This document shows, in pieces, positions 15,562-44,119 of a stretch of 44,119 bases of DNA. The first letter of the stretch is position 1. Every line of letters starts with the position of its first letter. The notes below the pieces were generated by a model. The model was given only the letters and a program-made list of their open reading frames with translations. It did no database searches and was not told the DNA's origin. A program made the translations under genes and the position numbers. The DNA is from a virus: the UHGV virus genome UHGV-0175781; one strand, written 5' to 3'.

Positions 15562-15596
15562 AGTCCCAGTGAGCTAAAACTTACTGGGACTTTTTT
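15562..15596 (+). terminator. hairpin (AGTCCCAGT-12 nt loop-ACTGGGACT) plus T6, abutting the holin start codon
   Basis: seen in sequence. Confidence 0.45.
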
Positions 15597-16607: not shown

Positions 16608-16622
16608 TACGAGGTAACACAG

Positions 16623-16785: not shown

Positions 16786-16791
16786 ACAATC

Positions 16792-16818
16792 AAGCCCGGT
16801 ATTATCCGGGCTTTTTAT
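16792..16818 (+). terminator. rho-independent terminator (AAGCCCGG-TATTAT-CCGGGCTT plus T5)
   Basis: seen in sequence after the lysis cassette. Confidence 0.6.
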
Positions 16819-16881
16819 TGCCCGCCTCAATAAGTCCCATGATATATTGTCCCCAGTACACTAATCAGGAATTAATTAAAT

Positions 16882-18024: not shown

Positions 18025-18154
18025 CGGCAACCCGTAAGCCTCCCAGCCTGCCGATTTGGTGGGCTTTTTTGTGCCTGTTATAATCCCAATTAGATGGCAG
18101 GGCCGTCTCCTATGTTGCCGATGGTCGGCGCATATGAACAAAAGGGCATATACC

Positions 18155-18706
18155 ATGGCAGAAATCAAAGTTAAGGGCCGACGCGCCAAACTGGACGGAC
18201 GAGTGGCTGTAACCCCGCGCCGTAAACCAGGCGAGCAAACCGAGCATACCAATCTCGGACCTGAGATCGAGTACGGCAAGCGCCGTAAAGGCGGCAAATG
18301 TGGACGCCCTACGGACTACCGATCCGTTTACTGCGACCAGCTTCGCCGCTATTTTGCCGACGCCGACGCCTGGCAGGTCAACTACTCCGATAAAGGCGCT
18401 GCGCAAGTAATCCCCCGCAACAAAATGCCAACCTTCGGTCGATTTGCCGCGGAAATCGGTGTGGGCGTAGCTTGCCTGTATCGCTGGGCGCGCGCACATG
18501 AGGAGTTCGCCGAGGCGATGGCTGACGCGATGGAGTTGCAGAAAACTTTCCTGATGGAAGCTGGCGGCGTGACCATCGCGGCGGGCTTCGCCACGTTCCT
18601 GCTTAAAGCCAACCACGGCGTACGCGACGATATCCCACTGGATGACGACGAAGATGATAACGGCGACGTCGTTGTCGAACCTACCGGCAAAGGCCAGGGC
18701 GAATAA
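18155..18706 (+). CDS. terminase small subunit (ORF extends to 18056)
   Basis: KMPTFGRFAAEIGVGVACLYRWARAHEEFAEAM...FLLKANHG resembles the Terminase_2 type TerS; stop overlaps TerL ATG. Confidence 0.7.
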   Translation: MAEIKVKGRRAKLDGRVAVTPRRKPGEQTEHTNLGPEIEYGKRRKGGKCGRPTDYRSVYCDQLRRYFADADAWQVNYSDKGAAQVIPRNKMPTFGRFAAEIGVGVACLYRWARAHEEFAEAMADAMELQKTFLMEAGGVTIAAGFATFLLKANHGVRDDIPLDDDEDDNGDVVVEPTGKGQGE

Positions 18707-20091: not shown

Positions 20092-20102
20092 GGAAACCGA
20101 CC

Positions 20103-21623: not shown

Positions 21624-22710
21624 TCAATATATGGCGGATCGAATGATCCGCCGACACATCTTCACCCAGCGCCTGAGCAATGACCAGGCGCGAAGGGTGC
21701 TGGCTATGTGGGAGAAGTTCCGGCCTACGTTACTGGGAAAGCTGACTGAGTTGCTTGATGGCAAATCGTCAATGAACAACAAGGCACTTTCAACCCTGCT
21801 AACGCAAATCGACAAGACCGTAAAAACGGAACTGCGCGCCGAGTTTAAGGCGTTGGCTGAAAGCCTTCAGGAGTTTGCCGACACGGAGGCTGATTATCTC
21901 GCCGACACATTAACGGCAGCGATCCAGCCGGTGGTCGCCGTACCTGCAGTCGAGGTGGTTGGCGTAGTGACCGGTGCGCAGATCGCAGCGACTGCAATTA
22001 AAAACCCGTTCCAGGGTAATACGATGATGCAATGGCCTGACTCACTTTCTGAGTGGACCAGGACGCAGATCGGCAATCAGGTGCGCGCCGGATTCATCCA
22101 GGGCAAGCCGACTATGGAAATTATTGCGGACGTGAGGCGCGCGCTCGGCGGTCGTAGTGCGCAAGCTATCTCAAGCGTTGTTAAGTCCGCAGTCAACCAC
22201 TATGCGGCGACAGCCCGCGAACTAATGGTAAAAGCAAATGACGATATTCTCGAAGGTCGCCAATGGTTATCTACATTGGACACGCATACTTCTCCCATGT
22301 GCCAGCTACGCGATCGCCTGTTTTATCCGGTTGATGTTACTCCCGACACCAAAGGAAAGCGCGGCGGGAAAGTGGTGGCTGGATCACAATATGGCGCTGG
22401 TCCAGGCAAGCTACATTATTGCTGCCGTTCGACGGAGACGTGGAAAGTCAAAGGTATGGAAGATTGGCCCAGTGGTAAGCGTCCGGCGCTGAAGGCTGAC
22501 GCTGGCAGATTGCTGAGTGAGCAGGTCGACGCGCAGACTGATTTCTTCTCATGGGTGCAGCGCCAGCCGCGCCATATCCTGGAGGAATTATACGGGGTGC
22601 AACGCGCCGACCAGATTATGCGCGGCGTGAAAGTCCCGAAGATGTTCACCGATTCCGGCGAACTAATGACTATCGCACAGCTTAAAAACCGGGGGTTATG
22701 GCGTGATTAA
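21598..22710 (+). CDS. head morphogenesis protein (Mu F / SPP1 gp7-like minor head protein)
   Basis: 370 aa directly downstream of portal; call mainly by position. Confidence 0.55.
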   Translation: MRTMAKTINQYMADRMIRRHIFTQRLSNDQARRVLAMWEKFRPTLLGKLTELLDGKSSMNNKALSTLLTQIDKTVKTELRAEFKALAESLQEFADTEADYLADTLTAAIQPVVAVPAVEVVGVVTGAQIAATAIKNPFQGNTMMQWPDSLSEWTRTQIGNQVRAGFIQGKPTMEIIADVRRALGGRSAQAISSVVKSAVNHYAATARELMVKANDDILEGRQWLSTLDTHTSPMCQLRDRLFYPVDVTPDTKGKRGGKVVAGSQYGAGPGKLHYCCRSTETWKVKGMEDWPSGKRPALKADAGRLLSEQVDAQTDFFSWVQRQPRHILEELYGVQRADQIMRGVKVPKMFTDSGELMTIAQLKNRGLWRD

Positions 22711-28589: not shown

Positions 28590-28704
28590 AGCCGCTCCGG
28601 TTGGTTATCAATTTTGGTGAATAGTACCGTTGGCGGTATGATTAGTCAAGACCTGAAATGTCTCAGGTTGCATATATTGTAATCCGTTGATTTAGGAGGT
28701 TATT

Positions 28705-29430
28705 TTGGGATACCAGTTACCAAATGGATCCAGCGTCCAGATTGGGTCCGTATTAGGCCACGGCATCGCTGTTACGGCAGCTACCAACGCCGCCGCGTCT
28801 ATCTCTGACCTTACGAAAGGTTGCGTTATCACCTGCGCGGCTTCTCATGGCCTGAAAGTCGGCGACGTGGTAATGTTCACTAAAACTCCGTGGGTCCGTG
28901 CGCTGAACCGAGCGTTCATCGTGGGTAAAGTGGCTACCAACGACGTTACGCTGGCGCGCTTCGATACTCAAGACGCCACCAAATACCCGACCGGTGCTTT
29001 CAGCGTAGGCACACCAGGCGAGGTGGTGAAGGTGTCGAGCTTTATCGACTTCCCGTTTATCACTAACGTCGCCGTGTCTGGTGGCGACCAGCAGACTACT
29101 ACCTTCCAGCCGTTGCAGGTGAATACTGCGATCAGTCTGAATACCACGAAAAACCCGTTGGTCCAGACCTACACTTTCACCCACGACGAAGAAGACCCGA
29201 TCCGCCCGATTCTGGAAGACCTGGACGACACACAGAAAACCACTGTGATTAAGTTCACCAACCCGGCAGCGGCAAGCGGCAAAGGTGAAATTCGTATTTA
29301 CCCGGCTAAGGTGTCTTTCCAGAAGATTCCGTCCGCTGAAGTAAACAACGTGGAGACGGTGGAGTCTACTCTGACCATGCAATCCGATATGGTTATTTAC
29401 CGTAAGGACCTGGTTGAAGCGCTGTCGTAA
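28705..29430 (+). CDS. major tail protein (TTG start)
   Basis: 241 aa; perfect AGGAGG SD 6 nt before the TTG; followed by a terminator; precedes G/GT and tape measure. Confidence 0.65.
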   Translation: MGYQLPNGSSVQIGSVLGHGIAVTAATNAAASISDLTKGCVITCAASHGLKVGDVVMFTKTPWVRALNRAFIVGKVATNDVTLARFDTQDATKYPTGAFSVGTPGEVVKVSSFIDFPFITNVAVSGGDQQTTTFQPLQVNTAISLNTTKNPLVQTYTFTHDEEDPIRPILEDLDDTQKTTVIKFTNPAAASGKGEIRIYPAKVSFQKIPSAEVNNVETVESTLTMQSDMVIYRKDLVEALS

Positions 29431-29460
29431 TTTGGTCGCTTAAATAGCGGGTGTTAATAT

Positions 29461-29483
29461 GGGGCCTGTATGGCCCCTTTTTA
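29461..29483 (+). terminator. rho-independent terminator (GGGGCC-TGTAT-GGCCCC plus T5)
   Basis: seen in sequence. Confidence 0.6.
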
Positions 29484-29498
29484 TTGGAGAATACTACA

Positions 29499-29861
29499 AT
29501 GGCTAAAGCACCACTCTTTACACTAGACCCTAAACCGACCTTTAAGCTGCCGATTGAGATCCCGCGCCCTGGCGAGAACGAACCGGGCAAAATGACGTTT
29601 ACCGTGCGCCACCGCCCTATCGACGAATTTTCGCAGACCATGCAGGACACTGAGCGCAAATTGTCGGAGTATGACGACAATGACCCGGAAGGCTTTAACG
29701 TTATGGTCGAGGCCATCATGCACGTCGCAGAGGGTTGGAATCTTCCAGACGAATTTAACGCGGAGAACGTCCGCCGCCTGGTAGTTAACTATCCTCGCGC
29801 GTTCGGCGTGTTCCATACGTCGTACTATCTTGAACTGATGGGATTGCGTGAAAAAAACTAA
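29499..29861 (+). CDS. tail assembly chaperone G (ORF extends to 29451)
   Basis: GGAGA SD; ends at a slippery heptamer next to the stop codon; immediately upstream of the tape measure region. Confidence 0.7.
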   Translation: MAKAPLFTLDPKPTFKLPIEIPRPGENEPGKMTFTVRHRPIDEFSQTMQDTERKLSEYDDNDPEGFNVMVEAIMHVAEGWNLPDEFNAENVRRLVVNYPRAFGVFHTSYYLELMGLREKN

Positions 29862-30175
29862 TTGAGGCGGCGCGACGCTTTTATGGCCCGCCGCCACCCT
29901 CCGAAGATTTAGCCGCGAGTTTATGGGGCGCGGCCCCTGAAGATGTTTGCCCACCAGTTGCGCTATGGCCCGACAACGCGAAGGTAGTCGCAGTCTTCAC
30001 AGATTGCTCCACGCAATGGCGCACCGGATTCGGTGGCGCATACGGCATCGACTACGGCGTACTGGAATGGCTGTTTAAGATGCATGGCGTCGAAAACGCG
30101 CAGCGTGCGTTTAAAGATATTAAGCTAATGGAACGCGTTGCGCTGGATGAAATGGCGCGGCAGAACCCCGCATAA
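29499..30175 (+). CDS. tail assembly chaperone GT fusion made by programmed -1 ribosomal frameshift
   Basis: slippery A AAA AAC at about 29852..29858; the -1 frame stays open for about 105 codons to TAA at 30173..30175 (hand translation ends ...LMERVALDEMARQNPA). Confidence 0.6.
29852..29858 (+). other. slippery heptanucleotide A_AAA_AAC for -1 frameshifting
   Basis: seen in sequence: XXXYYYZ heptamer in correct register with the G frame, directly before the G stop codon. Confidence 0.6.
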
Positions 30176-30177
30176 CG

Positions 30178-30491
30178 GAGCGGGACAGGCGGGACGTCCC
30201 GTTTTGTCCCGCCACCATTAAACAGCATATATACTCACTTTCATTGCATAAATTAAAAGCGGGACAGGGGTGCTGTCCCGATCTGTCCCGCCTCCAAAAT
30301 GTGAATATCTATTCAGTTTTCGTGCATAAAACAAACGGGACAAAAAGCGGGACAGAATGGGGCGGGACAAGGCGGGACAGCACCCCTGTCCCCGCCAGTG
30401 CTGCCGCGGGTTTTAGCCGATCGGGACAGGCGGGACAAAGCCCAGTCTTTCAGACTAGACGGGGGTCATTGGCCCCCCTCGTCTGAGACTG
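30178..30491. repeat. iteron array copy 2: about 14 GCGGGACA(R) units in both orientations, palindrome CGGGACGTCCCG, then a conserved bulged hairpin
   Basis: seen in sequence; 30330..30491 is about 85% identical to 14072..14231. Confidence 0.8.
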
Positions 30492-30559
30492 AATAAGGTT
30501 TGTTTTAAATTCGCTGATACAATGACCGACGGCAACTGCATAAAAAGGGGGACTGCATA

Positions 30560-33202
30560 ATGGCAGATCAGGCAGCGGGCATCACGCTCAAGGCGGACGT
30601 CGCGCAAATTAAAACGGCGAATACTGTGCTGGACACATTTGCGCAGAAATCCGAGAACACAGAACAGAAAGTCAAAAAATTAAACGACACCCTCGGTAAG
30701 TCGAAAAAGGTTACTGGCGACGCCGCGGGCGGAATGGAAAAGTTAGCGACTGAATCGCAGCGCGCCGCCGACGGCATGACGAAACAGGAGCGACTAGCCA
30801 GCCGATTAGGCATGTCGACCAAAAACCTGGGATTCGCATCGCGGAATGCCGCATTCCAGTTACAGGATATCGCGGTTACGCTTGAGATGGGTATGCCGGT
30901 GCACCGCGTTATGCTTCAGCAGCTACCGCAGCTTACTGGGGCGTTTGGCGGACTGGGAAACACGCTGCGTTATGTCGTCGGCACACTCGGCCCGTTAGGG
31001 ATCGGCATCGCTGCATTAACGGCGACGTTAGGCGTGGGCGTGGCAATCGCGTCACGGGCAGAGAACCAGGTCGCCGCGCTTAATAAGACGCTGGCGCTGT
31101 CCGGTAATATTTCAGGCCTCACCGCTAACCAGATCCTGGTGCTGTCCGAGAACGCCGAGCGCATGGGCGGGTCATTTCGCAAGACGCGTGACACAATCCA
31201 GGCGCTGGCGGCGGCGGGTGTGAAAGCGGGCGGTGACTTCGGCGCATTGGCTAAGGTAGTTAATGACTTTGCGAAGGTGTCCAGCCAGCCGATCGAGGAT
31301 GTGGTAGCGGCTGTGGCGAAGCTGTCAACCGACCCCGTTGGTGGACTGCGTGCGCTGGCGGATAAGTATCACGTCGTAAACGAAGCGCAGATCCAGCAGG
31401 TACAGTCGCTCGTTGATGCGGGTCGTGAGACAGACGCAGTTGCGTTGGCTAACAAAACAGCCGCTGCGTCGTTCACCAGCATGACCAATGAAATCAAGTC
31501 CAACATGGGTACGCTTGAGCGGTCGATGAACGTCGTCACATCGGCAGCTAAATCTATGTGGGATGCAATCCTGGATGTGGGCCGCGCGCAGTCCTCGAAT
31601 GAGTCCGAGATGAAAGCGCGTGAGTCCTTGCAGCGCATGACCACGGCTTATTATGCCGAGATGAAAGCGGTAAACGCTGCCGGTGGGGTAATGACTGAAG
31701 CGCAGAAAGCACGTATTAACATGCTTTACAGCGAACTGGTAGCCCAGGAAAAAGTGGTGGCGTCGCTCACCCTGCGTAACCGTGCGGAGCGAGACAACGC
31801 CCGCGCCGCAGACGAATCCGCAAAGGCGAACGAGGAGGCCAACCGCACTGCCCGTGACCGCGCCGCGTTCGAGAAGGAATACGCCACCAACGCTAAGAAG
31901 CGCGCCGACGAGATCGCCCGCCTCAATTTGCTGAATAAGCGCGGCGTTATCGACGAGAAAGAGCTTGCTGAGGCGGTGAAGCAGGTAAACGAGCGTTACA
32001 AAGACCCCGCCCCGAAGAAGGCCGCGGCTGTTCGCGTGGATGCCGGTATGAAAATGCTGGAAGTTGCACGGAGCGAACTGGTCCAGCTTCGAGAATCCGG
32101 CAAGCAGATCGAAGCCAACGCATCGACGCAGACCCGCACGCAACGCGCTCAAGCGGCCTTAAACAAGCTGATCGCGGATAATGAGCAGTTAATTGCCGCA
32201 AGCAAAGAAAGGGCGCTAACGGCAGCGGAAAAGCAGCAAATGGCAGAATTCGGACGCGTGAAGGAAGTGCGCGAGCAGATCGTCGAAGAAGCCAAATTGC
32301 TGGACGCGAAAGAGAAGCAGGTCAAGGCGCACGCGCAGATCGATGCCTTCGTTAAGAACCAGAACGCCGAACTAAAAGCCACCGCGGCGGGCTATGCGCT
32401 TTCCACTCGCGAAGCGGCAAACCTGCGTGAAGAATTGCAGCTAATTGACCGCCTGAAGCGGGTTGGCGCTAACGATACCGATATTGACAAGGCGGTGTCT
32501 AAGCTGCGCGAAGTGCAGGAAGCACAGACCGGCGCTAACGCCTCGCTATGGGATGGCTTCAGCCGCGGGCTTAAGGATAGCGTGGATGATATGGGTAACG
32601 GATATACGCAGATGGCGTCACTCACAAAATTCACGTTCGGCGCTATGCAAGACACGATGAACGAGTTTTTCGAGACTGGCAAGCTGAACGCAAAGGATAT
32701 GGTTAAGTCCATCCTGAGCGAATTAATCAAGCTGGCTACATCGCAGGCATTCAAGTCCATTGTTAGCGCTTTCGGTGGCGATGGCGGCAAAAACGGATTG
32801 TTCGGCGCTATCTTCTCTGGCCTAACTAAGAATGCGGACGGAGGAGCGTACGCAGGAGGCAATCTCGCGGCCTATTCGGGGAAAGTGGTAAGCCAGCCTA
32901 CCTTTTTCAGTTATGGCGTTCAGGCGTTCGCTAAGGGCGCGGGATTGATGGGTGAGGCTGGGCCAGAGGCCATCATGCCACTGAAGCGCGGGCCGGACGG
33001 TAAACTTGGCGTTGCCGCGTCGGGAGCAGGCGGTGGTATGGTCGTGACGACCAACGTTTACACGGGGACTGGTAAAACGGATACCAGTGTCAGCGGGCCG
33101 GACCCCCGTACCGCGCAGGCGTTCGGCAAGCAAATCACCGAGGCGGTGAAGGCCGAGATCGTGAAGGCGACGAAACCGGGTGGTGTACTTTATAAACGAT
33201 GA
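30560..33202 (+). CDS. tail tape measure protein
   Basis: 880 aa, long Ala/Glu/Lys-rich helical sequence, glycine-rich C-terminus; SD AAAGGGGGA. Confidence 0.85.
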   Translation: MADQAAGITLKADVAQIKTANTVLDTFAQKSENTEQKVKKLNDTLGKSKKVTGDAAGGMEKLATESQRAADGMTKQERLASRLGMSTKNLGFASRNAAFQLQDIAVTLEMGMPVHRVMLQQLPQLTGAFGGLGNTLRYVVGTLGPLGIGIAALTATLGVGVAIASRAENQVAALNKTLALSGNISGLTANQILVLSENAERMGGSFRKTRDTIQALAAAGVKAGGDFGALAKVVNDFAKVSSQPIEDVVAAVAKLSTDPVGGLRALADKYHVVNEAQIQQVQSLVDAGRETDAVALANKTAAASFTSMTNEIKSNMGTLERSMNVVTSAAKSMWDAILDVGRAQSSNESEMKARESLQRMTTAYYAEMKAVNAAGGVMTEAQKARINMLYSELVAQEKVVASLTLRNRAERDNARAADESAKANEEANRTARDRAAFEKEYATNAKKRADEIARLNLLNKRGVIDEKELAEAVKQVNERYKDPAPKKAAAVRVDAGMKMLEVARSELVQLRESGKQIEANASTQTRTQRAQAALNKLIADNEQLIAASKERALTAAEKQQMAEFGRVKEVREQIVEEAKLLDAKEKQVKAHAQIDAFVKNQNAELKATAAGYALSTREAANLREELQLIDRLKRVGANDTDIDKAVSKLREVQEAQTGANASLWDGFSRGLKDSVDDMGNGYTQMASLTKFTFGAMQDTMNEFFETGKLNAKDMVKSILSELIKLATSQAFKSIVSAFGGDGGKNGLFGAIFSGLTKNADGGAYAGGNLAAYSGKVVSQPTFFSYGVQAFAKGAGLMGEAGPEAIMPLKRGPDGKLGVAASGAGGGMVVTTNVYTGTGKTDTSVSGPDPRTAQAFGKQITEAVKAEIVKATKPGGVLYKR

Positions 33203-33236
33203 TAAAATGGCCCTCACTACAACGTGGGGGCTTTTT

Positions 33237-33836
33237 ATGTCACAAGGTACAATCACACTAACGAAAGGAAGTAAGACCGTCACGGGCGCGGGAACGGCGT
33301 TCCTTAGCGAGATCGGGAAGGTACTCGTATTCGCCCGCATCGACGGCAACGACTACACCGGCAAAATTGCGGCATTCAACTCGAACACGGTCATTACTCT
33401 GAAAGATAACTGGGCTGGGCCAACGAAATCCGGTGCGGCATATGAGCTAATCGAAGCACACGACCCGCGATCAAACGAATGGCCCTATTACTGGCACATG
33501 CAATTGCAAGGCGGCGGAGACGTGCAGTTGTCTTTCCGGTCCGAGGAATTGCAATTTGGTAACGGTTACGGTCAGAACATCGCAGACGGCCCGAACGCCG
33601 AGACGAAACAGTTCCCCATGCAATTCATCGGACTGACTACTGACAAGTGGTGCGACCCCAAACTGGTTTACAACTTCCTTCGCGGTCACTTCGTAAAACC
33701 GTTTGTCGTCACCGCGCCGGATGGCGAAACAGGTTTATTCGTGGTCGAGCGTTCGAGCTTGTCGTACACGGACAACGGGCACTACACGGCAACGGTATCC
33801 GCCACCCTTAAGACTGCTATTGGATTCGTAAGATGA
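33237..33836 (+). CDS. minor tail protein in the gpM position (ORF extends to 33180)
   Basis: position directly after tape measure in a conserved M-L-K-I-J order. Confidence 0.6.
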   Translation: MSQGTITLTKGSKTVTGAGTAFLSEIGKVLVFARIDGNDYTGKIAAFNSNTVITLKDNWAGPTKSGAAYELIEAHDPRSNEWPYYWHMQLQGGGDVQLSFRSEELQFGNGYGQNIADGPNAETKQFPMQFIGLTTDKWCDPKLVYNFLRGHFVKPFVVTAPDGETGLFVVERSSLSYTDNGHYTATVSATLKTAIGFVR

Positions 33837-34621
33837 ATAAACTCTATCGTGAAGCGACGCGCTTTGACCCATCAGGACGCGTTCGCCTTATTCACATTGA
33901 CGCTCAGGACGTGGAACCAGGCGACGGCGCGATCGGAGCGGGGCATCACTATTTTCACTACTGCTTTATTCCGCACACTGCCGAGGATATTGCTGCCGCC
34001 GGTGGTGACGAGGATAAGCTAAAACCTAAATCAATCTTCTTCGGCGGGCAGGAGTTCGAATTTTGGCCCTTCGATTTGTCCGGCCTTAACTTCTCCACAT
34101 CGACGGCAGCAGAACCGCAACTAACAATCGTCGATATTGGCGGCATAATAACCCGGCTGTCGCTGAACCACGACCAGCTACTTGGCGCGAAGGTTGAGAT
34201 CATTGATACGTTCGCGAAGTTCCTGGATAACGGGACAGATCCAGATCCGACGCAGAAACGAGTTCAGGAGTATTACATCGACTCCCAGGTGGGCCGAAAT
34301 CCGGGCAAGCAAATTACCTTCGCACTATCCTCGCCTGCGGATATGGAAGGGCAGGTCGTTCCACGTCGCCAAATCATGAATATGTGCGAGTGGGCGCTCA
34401 ACGGGAAGTACGCCAGCGGGGACGGGTGCACCTGGAACCTTGCGAAGCCTGGTATAAAGTATTATGACGAGCGAGGTAATGAAGTCATCGCGATGAACAT
34501 GGACCGATGCGGCGGCTGTTTGTCAGACTGTTATCTTCGATTTGGGCAAGGGCTTGCGGACCCTAAAGCGGCTGTGCTGGACTTCGGCGGCTTTCCGGGG
34601 TCCAGATTAATTAAGGGGTAG
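33833..34621 (+). CDS. minor tail protein L-like
   Basis: 262 aa; C-terminal cysteine cluster (CEW...C..C...C) as in lambda gpL. Confidence 0.65.
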   Translation: MNKLYREATRFDPSGRVRLIHIDAQDVEPGDGAIGAGHHYFHYCFIPHTAEDIAAAGGDEDKLKPKSIFFGGQEFEFWPFDLSGLNFSTSTAAEPQLTIVDIGGIITRLSLNHDQLLGAKVEIIDTFAKFLDNGTDPDPTQKRVQEYYIDSQVGRNPGKQITFALSSPADMEGQVVPRRQIMNMCEWALNGKYASGDGCTWNLAKPGIKYYDERGNEVIAMNMDRCGGCLSDCYLRFGQGLADPKAAVLDFGGFPGSRLIKG

Positions 34622-34623
34622 TT

Positions 34624-35364
34624 ATGTTAACGAAAAAGGTTAAAAGCGATATCGCCGCACACGTCGCGGCGTGTCTGCCGGAAGAAGCCTGTGGCCTGGT
34701 TGTCATGGTGGGTCGTAAGCAAGTGTTCGTCCCATGTCTGAACGTATTCGAAGACCCGACCGGCGTGCGCTCCCGCAAAGACGCTTTTACGATTAGTGAT
34801 ATGGCCTGGATGGATGCCGAGGATATGGGCGACGTCGTGCGCGTAGTCCACTCACACCCGGGTCAGCGCGAGTTAACCCCCTCACTGGGCGACGTTAACG
34901 GATGCAACGGCAGCGGCGTAGTGTGGACCATCACTAACGAATATGGCGACTTTATTGAGATTGACCCGGAAGACCCGCCGCTGGTAGGTCGCCGATTTGT
35001 CCTCGGAATTACGGATTGCTATGGCCTCGTAATGGCATGGCACAAAAAGCAGGGTGTAAACCTGCCAGACTTCCGCGTGCCGTATAATTGGTGGGAGACA
35101 GGCGAAAATCTGTATATGGATAACTGGTACGGCGCTGGCTTCAGGGAATGCGAGGAGAATACGCCGGGGGCGATGGTCATCATGCAGATTAGCGCGCCAG
35201 TGCCTAACCACGCCGGGATATTCCTTCCTGGCAACCAACTCCTACACCATATCTACGGCAGTCTGTCGAGCGTGGTCCCCTTCCGGGCAGGATTTTTCCG
35301 CGACAATGTGGTTAAATGGGTCCGTCATAAAGACCTACCGGGGAATATCACAGAATGGCAATGA
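34624..35364 (+). CDS. tail assembly protein K-like (JAB/MPN plus NlpC/P60 domains)
   Basis: VVHSHPGQ JAMM-type motif; C-terminal Cys/His hydrolase region. Confidence 0.7.
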   Translation: MLTKKVKSDIAAHVAACLPEEACGLVVMVGRKQVFVPCLNVFEDPTGVRSRKDAFTISDMAWMDAEDMGDVVRVVHSHPGQRELTPSLGDVNGCNGSGVVWTITNEYGDFIEIDPEDPPLVGRRFVLGITDCYGLVMAWHKKQGVNLPDFRVPYNWWETGENLYMDNWYGAGFRECEENTPGAMVIMQISAPVPNHAGIFLPGNQLLHHIYGSLSSVVPFRAGFFRDNVVKWVRHKDLPGNITEWQ

Positions 35365-35972
35365 CAACGTTTAAATTGTACGGCGTCTTAGGGCGTCGAT
35401 TCGGTAAAGTGCATAAGCTGGACTGCTTCACACCGGGCGAAGGAATCACCGGCTTGTGTGTGAAGTTGCCAGGGTTACAAGACTTTTTAATGTCCGCCCA
35501 CCTGGACAACATGATGTTCAAGGTGCGCAAGGGTAATCACACAATGACCGGTTATGATGAGCTTGGCGAGTTCCACGGCAACCGCGTCGTTACCATCGCG
35601 CCGGTTATGACTGGCGCAAAAAGAGGATTGGGTCAATTGCTGGCGGGTGTCGCGATCGTAGTGGCGTCGTTCTATACTGGCGGGCTTGCTACTGCCGCTT
35701 TCGGGGCTTCGGCGGCGACCGCTGCCGCTATCGGGACGGCGACGTTTTCGTTCGGGATGTCGATGGCGCTGGGTGGCGTTATGCAATTGCTATCGCCGCA
35801 ACCGAAAGGATTGCAGACAAGGCAGGACGTGGATAACAAAGCGTCGTACGCGTTCGGCGGGCCTGTAAACACGACCGCGCAAGGCACGGCGCTTGGTGTA
35901 TTATGGGGCGAGCGTGAGATCGGCGGCGCTATTATTTCAGCCGGAATCGTAACCGAGGACTTGAACGAATGA
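35355..35972 (+). CDS. tail assembly protein I-like
   Basis: 205 aa; Ala/Gly-rich C-terminal half; position between K-like and J-like genes. Confidence 0.6.
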   Translation: MAMTTFKLYGVLGRRFGKVHKLDCFTPGEGITGLCVKLPGLQDFLMSAHLDNMMFKVRKGNHTMTGYDELGEFHGNRVVTIAPVMTGAKRGLGQLLAGVAIVVASFYTGGLATAAFGASAATAAAIGTATFSFGMSMALGGVMQLLSPQPKGLQTRQDVDNKASYAFGGPVNTTAQGTALGVLWGEREIGGAIISAGIVTEDLNE

Positions 35973-38900
35973 CGATTATCTACGACGTCACAGGGCATAA
36001 AGGCGGAGGCGGCAAACAGCACACCCCACAGGAGACGCCCGATAGCCTGCATTCGCTGGCTAAAATCCGCATCTTGCTTGCACTGGGCGAGGGTGAATTC
36101 GAAAGTATTACCAGCGCCAGCGAATTGCGGCAGCGTGTATATCTGGATGGAACGCCGATCCAGAATGCTGACCTGTCCGAAAACTTCCCTGGAGCGCGGG
36201 TGGAGTTCCGCCCCGGCACACAGCACCAGGATGTGATCCACGGATTTTCGGCGGTGGAAAGTGAGCAATCTGTCGGCGTAAAACTGGAAAACGGCACGCC
36301 GTGGGTGCGCCAGATTAACGATACCAGTCTGGACGCTGTTCGCATTCGCATCGGTATTCCAGCCCTGTACACTAACGAAGATAATGGCGACCTGGTGGGC
36401 GGGCGCATCGACTATAAGATAGTTGTGTATACGGATAACGCCGACCCGCGTGAGTTCAGATTCGCCGCCGTTGGTAAAACAATGTCGCTATATGAGCGCG
36501 ACCACCGCATCGAATTACCTCCGAACGTTAACACCGGCTGGCGCGTGGAGGTGCACCGCATAACGGCAGACCCCACATCGGCGAAAGTGGTTAATGATAT
36601 CCGGGTGCAGTCCATCACTGAGATTATTGACGCCCGCCTGCGTTACCCGCTAACCGCGCTGTTGTTTGTGGAGTTCGACGCCAAAGCGTTCCAGAACATC
36701 CCGCGCGTGTCCATCAAGTGCAAAGGCCGCAAAGTTCTAATACCTAACAACTACGACCCGATCAATCATACCTATTCCGGGGACTGGGACGGCACGTTTA
36801 AACGCGCATGGACTGATAACCCTGCGTGGCACTGGTACGATATTTGTATTACTGAGCGCTTCGGCCTCGGTCGGCGTATCAAACCGCAAATGCTAAACCG
36901 ATACGCGCTCTACCAGATTGCGCAGCGCTGCGATCAGTTGGTCAGCGACGGCAACGGTGGTCGAGAAATCCGCTTTAAGAATGATATGTACATTCAGTCA
37001 CAGACGGATGCCTGGACCGTGCTTAAGGATTTAGCCGCCATCTTCGCTGGAATGACCTGGTGGGGCAACCAGATGTTGAATATTGTCAGTGACCAACCGG
37101 TCGCAGCAGTGTCGCACACTATCACCAACGCCTCGGTAATTGATGGTCGATTCGACTACGCATCTGGCAGCCAGAAAACTCGCTATTCCACATTTGCGGT
37201 AGCATACGGCAACCCGAAGAACCACTATGAAGATGCCATCGCAACGGGGCAGCGCGTCGAACTTGTACGCCGCCATAAGATTAACCGTCTTGATATTACG
37301 GCGATCGGCTGTACGCGTGAATCTGAAGCGCAACGCCGCGGGCACTGGGCGCTAATTTCCAACCAGCTTGACCAGCAAGTTAGCTTTAAGGTTGGCATGG
37401 AAGGGTTATTCTTTATTCCGGGTAGCGTAGTCGCGATCGCCGATACAAACATTTCTGGCGGTTTTGAGACGCGCGGCGGTCGACTGTTGTCAGACCCGGG
37501 CACGCGTACCGTGCTGAACACGGATAGCGAAATCACGTTCCGTCCTGGCGATAAGTTCCTTGTACGCACCGATAGCGGAAATGTTGAGACTCGCGAGATC
37601 GCCAGCGTCAACGGCAACAAGGTAACGTTAAAAACCGCACTGGACGCCAACCCTATTCCTGACCAGCCGTTTTGCGTTGATGGTGACGATATCCAGTTGC
37701 AGAAATTCCGCATCACCGACCTTGAGTATGACGACTCTACCAGCACTTTCTCGGTGCGCGGGATTGAATACAACGATAGCAAATATGATGCCGTTGATAA
37801 TGGCGCGCGCCTTGATCCGGGCATCTTTACTCAAGTGCCTGACGGCGTAATGAAGGGGCCGGAATCAGTGACCATAACCCCGTCGCAGATTTCATCGCAA
37901 GGCCAGCTAATCACCAACGTGGATATTGTTTTCCCTCCGGTGAAGGACGCCGTGGTGTATGAAATACAGTGGCGGCGCACCAGCTTACAGAATATGGAAA
38001 TCCAGTGGGGTAACGACTGGGTGAATATCCCGCGCACGGCGTCGAATGGCGCGCACATTCCTAACGTGTTCTCCGGTAACTACCAGGCACGCGTCCGTGC
38101 GATCGGTATGGGCGAGATTTCATCTCCGTGGGTATCATCCGCGATCACGCCGATAGAAGGTCGTCTCGGCGGGCTTAACGCGCCTATCATCACCAACGCG
38201 ATTTCGGGCCTCCACCAAATTTTGTGGAAGTGGAACCACAACAACGCCGCGACGGATATTTCGTACACCGAGCTTGAAGTGCGCAAGACCGGTGAAACGG
38301 AATGGAAGTTTCTTACCAACGTCCCTTATCCGGGGGCGGAGTATGCGCAAACGTCACTGGAGTTCGGGATCTATCAGCAGTTGCGCGCCCGTGTAGCGGA
38401 TAAAATCGGCAACCTGTCGGACTGGTCGGCCCCGTTTGAAGGGCAGGTGAGTGACAAAGTTGACGAATACATGAAGGGGCTTGATAACGATTTCTTGACC
38501 TCCGAGGACGGTAAACGCTTCCAGGAAGCGATCGACACCATGCCGCAAGGTATCTATGAGTCTATGCTTACGGACGCCCAGCAGCTATTCAATGCCCGCG
38601 CAGAATATAAAGGGATTTATGCAGAGATCTCGGTCGCGTATAACGTGGCGGCGGACGCGCATAAAGCCGTAGCGCAACTGGAAACGTTGATCGGCACTCG
38701 TCTGGACGATGCTGAAGCGTCAATCCACACGTTGCAGACTGCGCAAAGCACGCATGAACAAGCGTTCGCCAAGTACCAGCAAACTGTTGCCGCTAAGTTT
38801 TCGGAACAGGAAGCAGCCATCCAGCAGGTACAAACGGCAACGGCGGACGTGGCGGGCGCGCTGGCAGAGTATAAGACCAAGGTCGCGGCGCAGTTCGGAC

Positions 38901-39388
38901 AGCAGTCCGCAGCTATCGAGCAGAAGATGACGTCTTCGTTTAACCATGCTGGTGGCAGCGCCACGTACAGTCTTAAGGCTGGCGTGACGTATAACGGGAC
39001 TTACTATGACGCCGGTATGCAGCTTTCAGTTGTGAAGTCTGGCAACGCAGTTAAATCGCGTATTGCGTTCAAAGCCGACCAGTTCTATATCATGCACCCA
39101 TCTAACGGGTCGCTTTCGTCCGCGTTTATCGTAGACGGCGGACAGGTGTATATCGACACGGCCCGAATCAAGGACGCGACTATTAACTTCGCGCAGATCA
39201 CGGACACGCTGCAATCGAATAACTATGACGGCAACACGCGTGGTTGGCGCTTAGGGAAAGATGGAACGTTTATCAACCTGGGAACCGGTAACGGCGGCGG
39301 GATGAAACAGACAAATACGCAAATCAGCGTTAGGGACGGAAACGGCGTTCTCCGCGTGCAGATTGGTGAAATCACTGGTAGTTGGTAG
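35969..39388 (+). CDS. tail tip / host specificity protein J-like (central fiber)
   Basis: 1139 aa; position after the I-like gene; size typical of J-type proteins. Confidence 0.8.
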   Translation: MTIIYDVTGHKGGGGKQHTPQETPDSLHSLAKIRILLALGEGEFESITSASELRQRVYLDGTPIQNADLSENFPGARVEFRPGTQHQDVIHGFSAVESEQSVGVKLENGTPWVRQINDTSLDAVRIRIGIPALYTNEDNGDLVGGRIDYKIVVYTDNADPREFRFAAVGKTMSLYERDHRIELPPNVNTGWRVEVHRITADPTSAKVVNDIRVQSITEIIDARLRYPLTALLFVEFDAKAFQNIPRVSIKCKGRKVLIPNNYDPINHTYSGDWDGTFKRAWTDNPAWHWYDICITERFGLGRRIKPQMLNRYALYQIAQRCDQLVSDGNGGREIRFKNDMYIQSQTDAWTVLKDLAAIFAGMTWWGNQMLNIVSDQPVAAVSHTITNASVIDGRFDYASGSQKTRYSTFAVAYGNPKNHYEDAIATGQRVELVRRHKINRLDITAIGCTRESEAQRRGHWALISNQLDQQVSFKVGMEGLFFIPGSVVAIADTNISGGFETRGGRLLSDPGTRTVLNTDSEITFRPGDKFLVRTDSGNVETREIASVNGNKVTLKTALDANPIPDQPFCVDGDDIQLQKFRITDLEYDDSTSTFSVRGIEYNDSKYDAVDNGARLDPGIFTQVPDGVMKGPESVTITPSQISSQGQLITNVDIVFPPVKDAVVYEIQWRRTSLQNMEIQWGNDWVNIPRTASNGAHIPNVFSGNYQARVRAIGMGEISSPWVSSAITPIEGRLGGLNAPIITNAISGLHQILWKWNHNNAATDISYTELEVRKTGETEWKFLTNVPYPGAEYAQTSLEFGIYQQLRARVADKIGNLSDWSAPFEGQVSDKVDEYMKGLDNDFLTSEDGKRFQEAIDTMPQGIYESMLTDAQQLFNARAEYKGIYAEISVAYNVAADAHKAVAQLETLIGTRLDDAEASIHTLQTAQSTHEQAFAKYQQTVAAKFSEQEAAIQQVQTATADVAGALAEYKTKVAAQFGQQSAAIEQKMTSSFNHAGGSATYSLKAGVTYNGTYYDAGMQLSVVKSGNAVKSRIAFKADQFYIMHPSNGSLSSAFIVDGGQVYIDTARIKDATINFAQITDTLQSNNYDGNTRGWRLGKDGTFINLGTGNGGGMKQTNTQISVRDGNGVLRVQIGEITGSW

Positions 39389-39391
39389 CAT

Positions 39392-39414
39392 AGGGGCTTC
39401 GGCCCCTTTCTTTT
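39392..39414 (+). terminator. rho-independent terminator (AGGGGC-TTCG-GCCCCT plus T-run)
   Basis: seen in sequence after the J-like gene. Confidence 0.55.
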
Positions 39415-39425
39415 GGAGGTATAAC

Positions 39426-39728
39426 ATGGCTTTCGGTGTCGCAACATGGGACGCGCAAGGGCGGCCAAACAACTACGGGATCAAGCCCGTTTCGGTTGTC
39501 GGAATTATTAAACTGACTCAAGGTCAAACATGGGGGGCGTGGTCGTTCGATATCCCGTCCAGTATGAAAGTAGGTTTTGTGGTCACGCTGGACGTAGGCG
39601 GCACTACGGTCGGCCGGGCGATCCGCGCCAGCGGGAACACGATAACAGTATCCGCGGCAAACAGCGCAGGTATTGGAAATTACCCGGCATCAGAATGTGA
39701 GGTAGTAGTTTTTGTGGAGAAAGCGTAA
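39426..39728 (+). CDS. hypothetical tail-associated protein (ORF extends to 39363)
   Basis: about 100 aa; GGAGG SD. Confidence 0.5.
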   Translation: MAFGVATWDAQGRPNNYGIKPVSVVGIIKLTQGQTWGAWSFDIPSSMKVGFVVTLDVGGTTVGRAIRASGNTITVSAANSAGIGNYPASECEVVVFVEKA

Positions 39729-39730
39729 AA

Positions 39731-40402
39731 ATGGCAAACTTCGGCGCGTTAATAGATAACAACAACGGCAACCCATTCATTACGCCAAACTCAACGCCGT
39801 TCGTCCTCTACGCTAAAGTGTCGGCAAATTCAGTGGACGCCGGTGCTGATTATAAAACAGCAAGCGGGGGTGTGGATATCCCATCGAACTATCCGGCGAT
39901 GGTGTTTATGCGGTCAAATAACCGCTGCGTCCTGGCGGCGTCACGATCCGGTAACCGGATTATATTTAGCGGAAGCATTCAGGGGCAGAATAACCCACAT
40001 TTTACCGTCACGGCGTACATATTCGCGAGATTCCCGCAACCGCTGCCGAGATGGGGTTTTGCTATTTGGGACGCCAGCGGGACTTGCATACTAACCAACG
40101 AAAGCAAGGTACTCACCGATTTAGTCACAGTTGGCAGCTTCGGCAATAACGGAGGAATTAACATAGACCAGACGCTGCCGGGTAAGTACGCGGTATCACC
40201 CATGTTAATGGGCGCTACTTTGATCCAAATCTTTGTACAGGGGCAACCGCAGATTATCCAGATCTCGGCGGGGACAGGGGCTTACGACAACGGAAGCGGC
40301 ACTCGTATTAACGCAGTCGCTACGCAGGCTGGGTCTGGTAGCATCGCCGGGTATCAAAACACCGGCGTTGCGCTGACCGCGATTAACGTGGACGGGATAT
40401 GA
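39731..40402 (+). CDS. hypothetical tail-associated protein
   Basis: 223-aa Gly/Asn/Ser-rich ORF between J-like gene and tail fiber. Confidence 0.5.
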   Translation: MANFGALIDNNNGNPFITPNSTPFVLYAKVSANSVDAGADYKTASGGVDIPSNYPAMVFMRSNNRCVLAASRSGNRIIFSGSIQGQNNPHFTVTAYIFARFPQPLPRWGFAIWDASGTCILTNESKVLTDLVTVGSFGNNGGINIDQTLPGKYAVSPMLMGATLIQIFVQGQPQIIQISAGTGAYDNGSGTRINAVATQAGSGSIAGYQNTGVALTAINVDGI

Positions 40403-40403
40403 A

Positions 40404-40425
40404 AAGCCCCGGAAGGGGCTTATTT
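40404..40425. terminator. bidirectional hairpin terminator (AAGCCCC-GGAA-GGGGCTT) between convergent genes
   Basis: seen in sequence; T-rich on both sides. Confidence 0.45.
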
Positions 40426-40638
40426 GCAAGTGGTGCTTTTGAAGTGGTCTACAGAAACATACTGGAAGTTGAAAGGGTAGCCCGCCCGCAACATTTTATG
40501 CCCGCTAAAGTCGGCAACCCCAAACACCGGGACCGAGTATTCCATGCCGCTATTAACATATGTCGCGTCGCAGACTTTAGTCGGCATGTTGGCACAACCC
40601 GACAGAAGAACCGCACAAATCATAATTAAAGTTTTCAT
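40420..40638 (-). CDS. small outer-membrane lipoprotein, candidate superinfection-exclusion protein (Cor/Llp-like)
   Basis: 72 aa; signal peptide MKTLIMICAVLLSGC with lipobox LSGC; opposite strand next to receptor-binding genes; AGGGGGA SD. Confidence 0.55.
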   Translation of the reverse strand: MKTLIMICAVLLSGCANMPTKVCDATYVNSGMEYSVPVFGVADFSGHKMLRAGYPFNFQYVSVDHFKSTTCK

Positions 40639-40670
40639 GGTATCATCCCCCTATATTTGGTTGAGTTTTA

Positions 40671-40698
40671 GTATTACACCGCTCAATCACGAATGCAA
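40671..40698 (-). promoter_or_regulatory. putative promoter for the lipoprotein gene (-35 TTGCAT in ATTGGTTGCAT, 16-bp spacer, -10 TAATAC)
   Basis: read on minus strand. Confidence 0.4.
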
Positions 40699-40721
40699 CC
40701 AATTTATACGAGGATTTAGCT

Positions 40722-42545
40722 ATGGCAGCGGGTACTCTATCCGTAACGAATAACAGCAAGGCGGTTGTCGGCGTCGGCACAACGTTTACCGCGTTCAAGG
40801 CTGGCGACTTCTTAACGCTGGTGGTAGGACAAGTGCCATACACTGTTGCGATCGCGTCCGTCGAAAGCGACACCGCGCTTACGCTGGTGCTGCCGTTCGA
40901 CGGCCCCACGGCAACGGGACTCGCGTGGGATGGTGTTAAGCGCGATACCATGTCGCTGGCGACGATGGGCGTAACCGTCCAGGCACAGAAAGCGTTGCGC
41001 TTGATGATCGCGGACGAAAACAACTGGCGTGCGATCTTCGGAGACGAAGAAGAAATAACGGTAACGCTGCCGAACGGGCAAGTTATGCAGGGTATGTCCT
41101 GGGGCTACCTGTCGCAATTGCTGAAGGAAGTTGACCCCGTTGAAATGCGCAACCTGCAACAACAAGCCGCGGCATCTGAAGCAGCAGCGCAAGGATTTCG
41201 CAATGAGGCCGAAGGCTTCAAGACGGAGACGGCTGGCATTCGCGATGCCACCAACCAGATTAAGGCAGATACGGCAGGCATTCGCGATGCCACTAATACC
41301 ATCAAAACGCAGACTGATCAGATTAAGGCTGATACGCAGGCGATCAAAGACCAGACTAACCAGATCAAGACTGACACCGGCGCTATTCGCGACGAGGCCA
41401 ACGCCGCGAAGGCTGAAGCGCAAGCCGCCAGCACTGCCGCGCAGGGATTTCGCGATCAGGCCGAAGAATGGGCGCAAAGCGTAAACCCCGACAATCTGCT
41501 AACCAAATCCGGCAACCTCGCCGGGCTTGCGGACAAAAGTGCGTCGTGGGCTAACCTTATGCCGTCAGGACCGCTTCGCGTAGGCGCGGACCCAGTCGAC
41601 CCTCTTGACTCTGCGACTAAAGGGTGGGTGTGGCGCGGTCTTGATGACGTGGGGATTTGGGGTTTACGCAATAATTACGCTTCAGATCCGGCGAATGGCG
41701 CAGAAGTATACGGCGGTAGATTCGACTCATCTGTGACCGTTGCTGGGGCCGAAAAATACAGAACGTCGATTCAGCTTCAGGGGCGTAATAACGTAGACGC
41801 CTGGACCCGTTTGGCGACCGTTAACGTCCTCGACCCGGTGAACTCGCCGTCGTGGGACTTTAAATATGATGGTAGGCTTATTTTTTATAAAGCATTGAGG
41901 CCATCGGCCATTTCTGCGTCGCCTGTTAATACCTACGCGACCCTTCCTAATACCTGGATGGACAGCCAGTACGCGGGCCACGTAGGTTTTATTGGTGGTG
42001 GCGCGGGCACGGCGGGTGGTGGGTGGCGTAACTTCATTTCGTTCGGGGCGTTGATTCACCCCGTTGCGGAGTCATCACACCCTCACGCTATGATTTCGCA
42101 GGTCTTTGACTATGATCTGGCGACTGGACTGCAGCCTAACGCCGATATAGTTCGGAATACTACCTTTAACGCCGAGTCATACGATATTACCTTCGGCAAC
42201 AACGCTGGGTCGGTTGGATATATTTTCGCAAAATCCCCGGTATCCGACAGGGCGCTGAAGCATGATATCGCCAGGATCGACACTCAAGTTGCGTTCGATA
42301 ACGTTATGGCAATGGAATACTCTTCCTTTGTCTATAATTACGACAAAAAGGAGACAGTCAGACGTGGTTTTATCGCGCAGCAGTTGGAAGAGATCGACCC
42401 GCAGTATGTTCGCAAGTACGCCGACGCAACTGGTAAAGAGTTTCTGGCATTAGATGAAAACGTCCTGTTACTTGACCTTGTCGCGACTGTTCAGCATTTG
42501 GCGGCGAAGGTTGAGGCTTTGGAAAGTAAGTTGGCGGAGAAATAA
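40722..42545 (+). CDS. tail fiber with C-terminal intramolecular chaperone (peptidase S74-type) domain
   Basis: 607 aa; heptad-like repeats (IRDATNQIKADT...) in the shaft; C-terminal SDRALKHDIARID...LAAKVEALESKLAEK matches the S74 autoproteolytic chaperone motif. Confidence 0.8.
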   Translation: MAAGTLSVTNNSKAVVGVGTTFTAFKAGDFLTLVVGQVPYTVAIASVESDTALTLVLPFDGPTATGLAWDGVKRDTMSLATMGVTVQAQKALRLMIADENNWRAIFGDEEEITVTLPNGQVMQGMSWGYLSQLLKEVDPVEMRNLQQQAAASEAAAQGFRNEAEGFKTETAGIRDATNQIKADTAGIRDATNTIKTQTDQIKADTQAIKDQTNQIKTDTGAIRDEANAAKAEAQAASTAAQGFRDQAEEWAQSVNPDNLLTKSGNLAGLADKSASWANLMPSGPLRVGADPVDPLDSATKGWVWRGLDDVGIWGLRNNYASDPANGAEVYGGRFDSSVTVAGAEKYRTSIQLQGRNNVDAWTRLATVNVLDPVNSPSWDFKYDGRLIFYKALRPSAISASPVNTYATLPNTWMDSQYAGHVGFIGGGAGTAGGGWRNFISFGALIHPVAESSHPHAMISQVFDYDLATGLQPNADIVRNTTFNAESYDITFGNNAGSVGYIFAKSPVSDRALKHDIARIDTQVAFDNVMAMEYSSFVYNYDKKETVRRGFIAQQLEEIDPQYVRKYADATGKEFLALDENVLLLDLVATVQHLAAKVEALESKLAEK

Positions 42546-42550
42546 GGATA

Positions 42551-42575
42551 AGGGGCCATGTGGCCCCTGTTTTTA
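42551..42575. terminator. terminator where the plus-strand late block and the minus-strand genes converge (AGGGGCC-ATGT-GGCCCCT plus T5)
   Basis: seen in sequence. Confidence 0.55.
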
Positions 42576-43148
42576 GTTTGAGTTTTCCCAGTCCATTTTG
42601 CGCCGCACAAGCGGGCTTTCGTAATATTCCTTTCCATCCACTTCCACCAGGGGCCAGTCGTTCACTATCACGTATGGCTCCGCAATATCCTCAATAACGC
42701 CGCTGGCACTATGTTGCCCGAACGATACGCCCACCAGGATAACCCCTGCAACGCGACGGGTAAGGTATTCTCGAGCGCAACGTGCCTCCACCAGTCCTCG
42801 ACGTATGCCGCTGGTGGCCTTAACCTCGTAGGTCCAGACGGCATCGATCACATGTTCGCGGAAGTCGGGACCGGATTTTACCTTGCGCTTGCCGACCATG
42901 ATAATATCGCCGCGGTCAATGGTGTTGGCGCTAAACAGGCCTGTACGCATCAGTAAGCCTTGCGGGATACAACTACGCCCACCCGCCTGACCCTCAAGGT
43001 ACATGCCTGCAAACATTTCGCCAAGCACACCGACGAGTCTGCTTTGCTTGCACGCGTCAGACTTGTATCGCCTCTGGTCAAACTCGATGCTTGCTATCAT
43101 TGCCGCCATGTGGAATTGTTTACCAGATATTTCGTATTCGCCGTACAT
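42573..43148 (-). CDS. hypothetical protein (possible PD-(D/E)xK-like nuclease fold, weak)
   Basis: 191 aa; GAGGA SD; D...EVK arrangement (GDIIMVGK...TYEVKA) is only suggestive. Confidence 0.5.
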   Translation of the reverse strand: MYGEYEISGKQFHMAAMIASIEFDQRRYKSDACKQSRLVGVLGEMFAGMYLEGQAGGRSCIPQGLLMRTGLFSANTIDRGDIIMVGKRKVKSGPDFREHVIDAVWTYEVKATSGIRRGLVEARCAREYLTRRVAGVILVGVSFGQHSASGVIEDIAEPYVIVNDWPLVEVDGKEYYESPLVRRKMDWENSN

Positions 43149-43190
43149 CGTGTGGTCCTCATTGATGCGGGCCGAAGCCCGCGATTAGAA

Positions 43191-43745
43191 TTATTTAAGT
43201 GCACCAGTCACCAGTGTTTTTTCCATGTTGCGGAAATCTTCCTGCGTCATGCAGATTTTCGACCCGTCTTCGCCGGTGAGCACGACCATAGGCTGGACGT
43301 CCTGGGCTACGACCCCAAAATCGCGTGCCTTAACAGTCTTGCCGAACGAGGCCACCGTATCTTCTGCAACGCGAATTGCGCTGTTATACGCATTAATCTC
43401 GCCGTCAAGACGCACGGACAGCCCTTTGAGGCTTTCAAATTGCGCTGCCGTTGTATCGATCTGAATTTCGTCATGCACGGTCATGTAAGATTCGCCCAGC
43501 AGGGCGGCATACGCCACCAGGTCCACGATATTATCTTCTTGGTGCTTACGGTGCTGGCGCACCAGCTTCAGGCAGATCAGGAAGGTCCAGGCTTCTTGCT
43601 CGGTAAGGTCGCGACCGGTAAGCGCGTTAAATACGGCAGCGATTTGTTTCGCGCTGCGTTCTTCTTTTGCGTTGTCATAGCCGTTTTCTTTCCCGCGCTG
43701 TTCCATAGTGGTGGCGGCATTTTTGCAGTATTCGTATGCTTTCAC
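43191..43745 (-). CDS. hypothetical protein
   Basis: 184-aa ORF in the minus-strand operon; no confident motif. Confidence 0.5.
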   Translation of the reverse strand: MKAYEYCKNAATTMEQRGKENGYDNAKEERSAKQIAAVFNALTGRDLTEQEAWTFLICLKLVRQHRKHQEDNIVDLVAYAALLGESYMTVHDEIQIDTTAAQFESLKGLSVRLDGEINAYNSAIRVAEDTVASFGKTVKARDFGVVAQDVQPMVVLTGEDGSKICMTQEDFRNMEKTLVTGALK

Positions 43746-43808
43746 AGTATTACCCTTTTTAGCGAGGGGCGATATTGCCCCCGACGTGATTAAGATACTG
43801 CAACCAAC

Positions 43809-44119
43809 CTATTGGTTGCAAGTGAATTTTGCAACGTTTATTGCGTAAATTTTCGGGACCAAATCGCCACACGCCCGACGAATTGCCGCGATGTTCTTCT
43901 CGCAATCTTCAATGATGACCAGTTCCGACACGTCCGCATAGCAGACCATTTTGAACACGGCGCACGCCTTAAACTCTGGCGGCGGGGTATCGTCCAGCAT
44001 GTGGCGCATAAACAACCGGCCTGTCGGGAATACTTCCAGTTGTTCGGCGGTGGTTTCCCAGCATTCCCGCTGCCGGTTGGTCAGATACGCGATTTCGAAG
44101 CCTTGCTCTTTGTACATGG
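43809..44119 (-). CDS. HAD-superfamily phosphatase-like protein, C-terminal part (probably continuous with 160..1 across the window junction)
   Basis: contains HAD motif II-like AYLTNR, a lysine region and motif IV-like VIIEDCEKN; frame is continuous with the ORF at 160..1 if ends are joined. Confidence 0.5.
   Translation of the reverse strand, partial: MYKEQGFEIAYLTNRQRECWETTAEQLEVFPTGRLFMRHMLDDTPPPEFKACAVFKMVCYADVSELVIIEDCEKNIAAIRRACGDLVPKIYAINVAKFTCNQ

Follow-up and report, generated by a model that had tools for sequence, protein, structure and literature searches.

The ICTV delimits a genus at about 70% nucleotide similarity over full length, and the genus Dhillonvirus comprises virulent siphoviruses that infect E. 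coli, Shigella, Salmonella and Sodalis. Published analyses of members of this genus bear directly on how their genomes end: the assemblies of five Dhillonvirus genomes closed into circles, and Opt-212 was predicted by PhageTerm to be packaged by the headful mechanism (PMC9022532); the same program indicated a pac site and headful packaging for UDS3lw (PMC13348001); and the large terminase subunit (TerL) of Kenya-K19 clusters with P1-type headful (pac) terminases (PMC10783031). Dhillonvirus virions are reported to be filled by a headful (pac) mechanism, giving terminally redundant, circularly permuted DNA, and it is because headful DNA is permuted and redundant that the genomes of the genus would assemble as circles. 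Dhillonvirus records in GenBank start at many different positions and run on either strand, which implies that the depositors found no fixed end.

In this work we analysed a single stretch of metagenome-derived viral DNA of 44,119 nucleotides, referred to as the window. By its alignments, the window represents a virulent E. coli siphovirus of the HK578/SO-1-like genus Dhillonvirus, whose genome it covers in full. Searches with its last 4.1 kb and with its first 25 kb each brought up 161-164 phage records, 80-95% identical; almost without exception these are Escherichia phages of Dhillonvirus type with genomes of 44-46 kb. Against phage B2 (MG581355, a circle of 44,283 bp), the window follows one collinear path round the entire circle, in an alignment that covers about 96% of each genome and whose blocks are mostly 91-94% identical. 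The resemblance to the Dhillonviruses B2, Kenya-K19 and Pubbukkers extends to the order of genes round the circle, to genome length (44.1 kb, compared with 44-46 kb) and to a 471-nt phosphatase gene in the same place, flanked by the Dam-side genes and a DUF6378 gene. The window departs from these relatives only in allelic changes, for example Thr54 versus Arg54, and in a few small indel regions, and it is a metagenome-derived genome rather than an isolate. The coordinates of the features discussed below are collected in Table 1.

Table 1. Features of the window (positions in window coordinates; + and - denote the strand).
Feature	Coordinates	Strand	Remarks
Phosphatase gene, 5′ part	1..160	-	ATG 160..158, codons 1-53 and first base of codon 54 (base 1)
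Phosphatase gene, 3′ part	43809..44119	-	Last two bases of codon 54, codons 55-156, TAG 43811..43809
Conserved residues on the end side	T67; R69 44075..44073; K104 43970..43968; E124-D125 43910..43905	-	From homologue alignment
Repeated bases	1..28		TCAGCAGCGGCAGCATATCCATGTTCAG; reappear at the 3′ end of scaffold_49 (44120-44147)
Replication/DNA-modification block	161..11043	-	With three genes beyond the junction makes 22
Dam methylase	847..362	-	In minus-strand block
SNF2 helicase	in 161..11043	-	
DNA polymerase A	7311..5020	-	In minus-strand block
PD-(D/E)XK nuclease	10015..8585	-	In minus-strand block
184-aa DUF6378 gene	43745..43191	-	Downstream of phosphatase gene
191-aa gene, no family	43148..42573	-	Last gene of minus-strand block
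Divergent intergenic region	11044..11308		Head of minus-strand block
G+C-rich hairpin AGGGGCC-ATGT-GGCCCCT	42551..42568		Likely terminator
TGCAACCAA, copies 1-5	1605-1613, 1622-1630, 11112-11120, 14387-14395, 14418-14426		
TGCAACCAA, copies 6-10	15208-15216, 23946-23954, 40694-40702, 43799-43807, 43812-43820		
Palindrome TGCAACCAA-ccta-TTGGTTGCA	43799..43820		Two motif copies; phosphatase TAG stop in loop
Terminase small subunit	ORF 18056..18706, probable start 18155	+	Packaging machinery
Terminase large subunit	18706..20091	+	Terminase_6N and Terminase_6C

A first-pass annotation of the window, made from the letters alone, had proposed that a minus-strand open reading frame (ORF) starting at position 160 is still open at position 1, and that joining the two ends of the window completes the interrupted codon and continues into a second ORF, yielding a product of about 156 aa. 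To examine the junction, we placed the last 600 bases in front of the first 400 and read the minus strand of the joined piece. The translation reproduces the proposed arrangement exactly: base 1 is the first base of a codon that is completed by bases 44119 and 44118, the frame proceeds in phase into 44117..43809, and neither a stop codon nor a frame break is encountered at the join. The resulting ORF (160..1 plus 44119..43809) consists of exactly 156 codons and a TAG stop, in one uninterrupted frame, and its product (MKLLICDLDGVINGSS...AINVAKFTCNQ*) starts with MKLLICDLDGV. The junction codon is ACC (Thr54), and it is because Met55 directly follows it that 43809..44117 had been listed as a separate ORF of 102 aa. 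When one base or two are left out at the join, a stop closes the frame after 65 or 102 codons; each end of the window has a single open frame, so that the match in phase is not trivial.

The joined gene is also found outside the window. The exact 156-aa protein is present in public assemblies (P0017), from which 10 contigs bearing the identical protein were examined, and full-length homologues of 156 aa share 79-97% identity with it. Kenya-K19, Pubbukkers and B2 each have an intact 471-nt coding sequence annotated at the corresponding position, under the labels 'putative phosphatase', 'putative nucleotidase' and 'hypothetical protein', and the joined DNA aligns with these three relatives across the junction without gaps, at 91-94% identity. 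In the alignment with B2, window positions 28694..44118 pair with B2 22305..6868 and positions 2..1299 pair with B2 6865..5568, so that window bases 44119 and 1 face B2 bases 6867 and 6866. Since two bases face two, nothing has been lost or gained at the join. The joined ORF is not a product of chance.

The provenance of the cut can be followed in assembly records. Through the portal protein of the window we reached an ENA scaffold, PASO19-1_SAMN09781703_METAG-scaffold_49 (44,147 bp; hereafter scaffold_49), in which the portal gene has the coordinates that it has in the window. Between scaffold and window, segment 32573-44119 shows no difference and segment 10103-31623 a single one (position 11122), amounting to one mismatch over the 33.1 kb compared. 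The scaffold ends with a repetition of the first 28 bases of the window (Table 1). This repeat is the circular overlap left by the assembler, and the window is the trimmed form of the same assembly; no terminal direct repeat of at least 8 bases was found in the window, because the overlap had already been trimmed. A second ENA contig, NODE_129 (ERZ1034962), which belongs to another assembly record and follows another assembler naming scheme than scaffold_49, aligns with the 20 kb around the join as a single block, at 99.94% identity. In Logan and MEGAHIT-style contigs the phosphatase gene is likewise intact and lies mid-contig, and the contigs found to span the junction (L016, L017, L019, L021 and L022) derive from other samples and assemblers. 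With regard to size, NODE_129 (NODE_129_length_44218; L017/L022) measures 44,218 bp, 99 bases above the 44,119 of the window, an excess that a SPAdes terminal overlap with k=99 on a circle of equal size would give.

The window is very probably a complete Dhillonvirus genome, recovered as a circular metagenome assembly and opened arbitrarily within a 156-codon HAD phosphatase gene, in a genus for which headful packaging is reported. The first-pass proposal of a complete circular or circularly permuted genome cut inside a gene is upheld by collinearity with the B2 circle, by the 28-base overlap of the scaffold and by the contigs that span the join. The cut point is an accident of how the circle was opened in assembly, a bookkeeping artefact rather than a biological end, and in replicating or concatemeric DNA base 1 directly follows base 44119.

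Other readings of the ends were weighed against this one. A reading of the window as a linear fragment of some larger molecule, such as a prophage in a chromosome or a longer phage genome, with two separate partial genes at its ends that only seem to match, is contradicted by the data and scarcely credible: no point in its support was found, and it would have to accommodate the overlapping ends of scaffold_49, the independent contigs that read through the join, the coverage of the whole B2 circle at a genus-typical length and the occurrence of the intact joined protein elsewhere. The junction might instead be slightly wrong, with the flanking bases (44119 G and 1 T) representing contig-end errors. 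These are the only positions of codon 54 at which the window differs from most relatives (ACC Thr versus CGC Arg), of 17 related loci compared, 13 have CG rather than GT at the join, and arginine occupies residue 54 in all close homologues returned. However, GT is found at the same place in four independent contigs (L011, L015, L016 and L017), far from their ends, the exact Thr54 protein is recorded from several assemblies, and the residue-54 column is variable in distant homologues (Y, N, L, Q, I), all of which makes an error of this kind extremely improbable. Thr54 is a natural allele, and its location at the junction is a coincidence.

A different possibility concerns the virion and not the assembly: the genome may be complete and the junction arbitrary while packaged DNA has fixed ends elsewhere, in the form of short direct terminal repeats or cohesive ends. 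Circular assembly alone cannot separate headful genomes from terminal-repeat or cos genomes, as all three end types produce it, and with fixed ends it would come from collapsed terminal repeats or concatemer reads; the 28-bp overlap is a feature of the assembler and is silent on virion ends; and the TerL of the window matches only the general Terminase_6N and Terminase_6C families, which do not discriminate between end types. We nevertheless regard fixed ends as very unlikely, in view of the PhageTerm headful calls in two Dhillonviruses, the grouping of the K19 TerL with P1-type pac terminases and the many points at which records of the genus are opened. The first-pass remark that a circular window is consistent with headful packaging agrees with the reports on the genus, and the phage represented by the window, which is known from a metagenome scaffold, may be packaged in this way.

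At the level of sequence, the 156-aa protein passes no curated family threshold. The match to Pfam Acid_phosphat_B (PF03767) is partial (residues 24-82) and scores 23.5 bits against a gathering cut-off of 27 (E 4.5e-5), matches to NCBIfam HAD models lie far under their cut-offs, and a PDB search with the single 156-aa sequence returned nothing below E = 0.37. A profile search of the PDB gave marginal matches to Pnkp1 (E 0.0018) and to a class B acid phosphatase (E 0.006). PHROG 415 ('polynucleotide kinase') is matched at 3e-35, and the labels carried by relatives disagree among phosphatase, nucleotidase and polynucleotide kinase. Because the sequence searches gave weak signals only, the fold was established by structure prediction.

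The AlphaFold model, computed from 16 homologues, has an alternating strand-helix fold and is of good confidence, with a pLDDT of 85.8 and a pTM of 0.82. Comparison with the PDB using Foldseek gave 48 hits at E<=1e-3, essentially all of them HAD-fold proteins with probability 1.0. Among hits of similar size, the phosphatase of T4 Pnkp ranks first (5uj0_A; TMq 0.70, TMt 0.76 and an rmsd of 3.3 A), ahead of Pnkp1 and plant VSP/class B acid phosphatase. The neighbours found among viral models go by the names polynucleotide kinase/phosphatase, PNKP phosphatase domain or phosphatase, and several of them are stand-alone proteins of 154-173 aa. Comparison of the joined protein with HAD proteins bears out the original HAD phosphatase call through both predicted fold and conserved motifs, and the model supports a stand-alone HAD-fold phosphatase resembling the phosphatase half of Pnkp.

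The catalytic motifs are distributed over both sides of the junction. HAD motif I, DxDx(T/V), which the first-pass annotation had recognised as DLDGV in the ORF from 160, is present at the end of strand 1 (strand E2-7 in the model) as D7-L-D9-G-V11, encoded by bases 142..128. The run C6-D7-L8-D9-G10-V11 is invariant in 16 sequences, as is R69, and within the DxDGV motif Asp7 would serve as the nucleophile and Asp9 as the general acid. Motifs II to IV had been placed in 43809..44117; conserved positions do occur on this side, but their assignment to particular motifs rests on weak alignments. Residue 67 is threonine or serine and lies two positions before the invariant R69; K104 is at least 90% conserved and is paired with a lysine of Pnkp1 only by a weak profile alignment; and E124-D125 align, again weakly, with the ED of beta-phosphoglucomutase 3e58. 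Thus placed, T67/S, K104 and E124-D125 appear to sit where HAD motifs II-IV are expected.

Among characterized proteins, the closest comparison is with the 3′-phosphatase domain of T4 Pnkp (5uj0) and with Pnkp1 (4xru/4xrp). Like these, the 156-aa protein is predicted to adopt a cap-less HAD Rossmann-like fold (~145-155 residues); its nucleophile motif is of the DxDGT/V type, its S/T-x-R motif includes an invariant arginine, and the alignment of the Pnkp1 profile hit takes in ICDLDG and LSxR. It differs from both in having no P-loop kinase domain, as no Walker A motif was found in the 156 aa, and in an identity of only 17-21%; it does not belong with the bifunctional Pnkp enzymes. Class B acid phosphatases/HAD IIIB proteins (PF03767; 2i33; plant VSP 4fyp) provide the best Pfam match and a structural TMq of 0.69, but the phage protein is devoid of a signal peptide and of extra cap elements. 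Proteins of Serratia phage Tsm2 and of Escherichia phages PTXU04 and Jk06 (gp61) have the same predicted fold (TMq 0.74-0.80), but share only 20-32% identity with the 156-aa protein and, to judge by their names, are uncharacterized. Encoded within a replication/DNA-modification block, the enzyme would most likely remove phosphate from the 3′ ends of nucleic acids or from nucleotides.

This block comprises 22 genes on the minus strand and runs from 11043 down to 1 and then from 44119 down to 42573, spanning ~12.6 kb; its counterparts in B2 (40424 to 44283/1 to 8414), Kenya-K19 and Pubbukkers are uninterrupted too. It had been suggested that the whole forms an operon reaching from about 11.1 kb across the junction to a terminator at 42.55 kb. 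The block and its end hairpin are both there, but a single operon was an assumption, and terminator-like hairpins occur inside the block. At its head, sigma-70-like sites on the minus strand are located at 11132..11104 (TTGACT-17-TAATAT) and 11236..11208, both being consensus matches only. At its far end, the hairpin at 42551..42568 lies between convergent genes, with the tail-fibre gene ending at 42545 and the last minus-strand gene at 42573, and its T-run is good on the plus strand and weak on the minus strand. The internal minus-strand hairpins, both strong and followed by T-runs, are found just after the first gene of the block (10495..10476; GGCCCGC...GCGGGCC TATTTTT) and between two small genes (4327..4311; GGCGGGC...GCCCGCC ATTTTTT), and sites of a repeated motif fill two of the intergenic gaps. 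On account of these hairpins and motif sites a single transcription unit is not established, and the hairpins suggest either more than one transcription unit or some control by read-through, as judged from consensus scans, which cannot settle transcription units.

The repeated motif is a 9-mer, TGCAACCAA, usually followed by T, which is present in 10 copies in the window, compared with 0.42 expected by chance. Eight of the 10 copies are intergenic, and a -10-like A/T hexamer comes directly after several of them; one copy is within the spacer of the sigma-70-like promoter (11132..11104), and another is 28 nt before the ATG of the tail-fibre gene. Phage B2 has 11 copies of the motif, several at corresponding positions on the coordinate map. 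The 9-mer may be an operator or promoter element. A gene for a small HTH protein (11309..11638) adjoins the divergent promoter region. The single position at which the window and scaffold_49 differ, 11122, is 2 nt from the motif copy at 11112-11120 and inside the promoter-like spacer; the window has A where scaffold_49 and phage B2 have G, and the difference may stem from polishing or curation, or may be a variant.

Two copies of the motif form a palindrome at the end of the phosphatase gene (43799-43820), where the motif itself supplies the last three codons (Cys-Asn-Gln). B2 and Pubbukkers keep this palindrome, and Kenya-K19 has a slightly altered form. No T-run follows it on the minus strand, and it is therefore not an obvious terminator.

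The plus-strand structural module contains two embedded minus-strand genes, at 27996-28589 and 23159-23923. The former, an ORF of 197 aa, is present in the window, in scaffold_49 and in contig k119_27210 and absent from several relatives (in a comparison of L018 and L026 with L025, L027 and L028), and it falls in the largest stretch of the window without a B2 alignment (28006-28693). The latter encodes a 254-aa protein with an Nmad5 domain. Both look like accessory (moron-like) insertions. Just upstream of the small terminase subunit gene, a plus-strand gene (16882-18024) encodes a protein of 380 aa with hits to calcineurin-like phosphoesterases that are all sub-threshold and with the annotation 'putative phosphoesterase' in B2; with it, the genome would encode two enzymes of phosphatase type.

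A more speculative account would take the phosphatase as a stand-alone PNKP-type enzyme that is conserved across Dhillonviruses and other siphoviruses and has lost, or never possessed, a kinase partner, and would cast it as a counter-defence enzyme and the palindrome motif as part of a phage-specific regulatory code, a combination that we consider unlikely. In one form of counter-defence, the enzyme might heal the 3′-phosphate or 2′,3′-cyclic phosphate ends left by host anticodon nucleases; in another, it might hydrolyse a phosphorylated immune signal.

What the junction reveals about the genus is already known, and it brings no new biology. For the annotation of this genome, the two terminal partial ORFs are one gene, which lowers the gene count by one and leaves no truncated gene, and the practical value of the result is that the window should be treated as a circle, with features near either end read across the junction. 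With the window, one metagenome-derived Dhillonvirus is added to a genus with well over 100 sequenced members.
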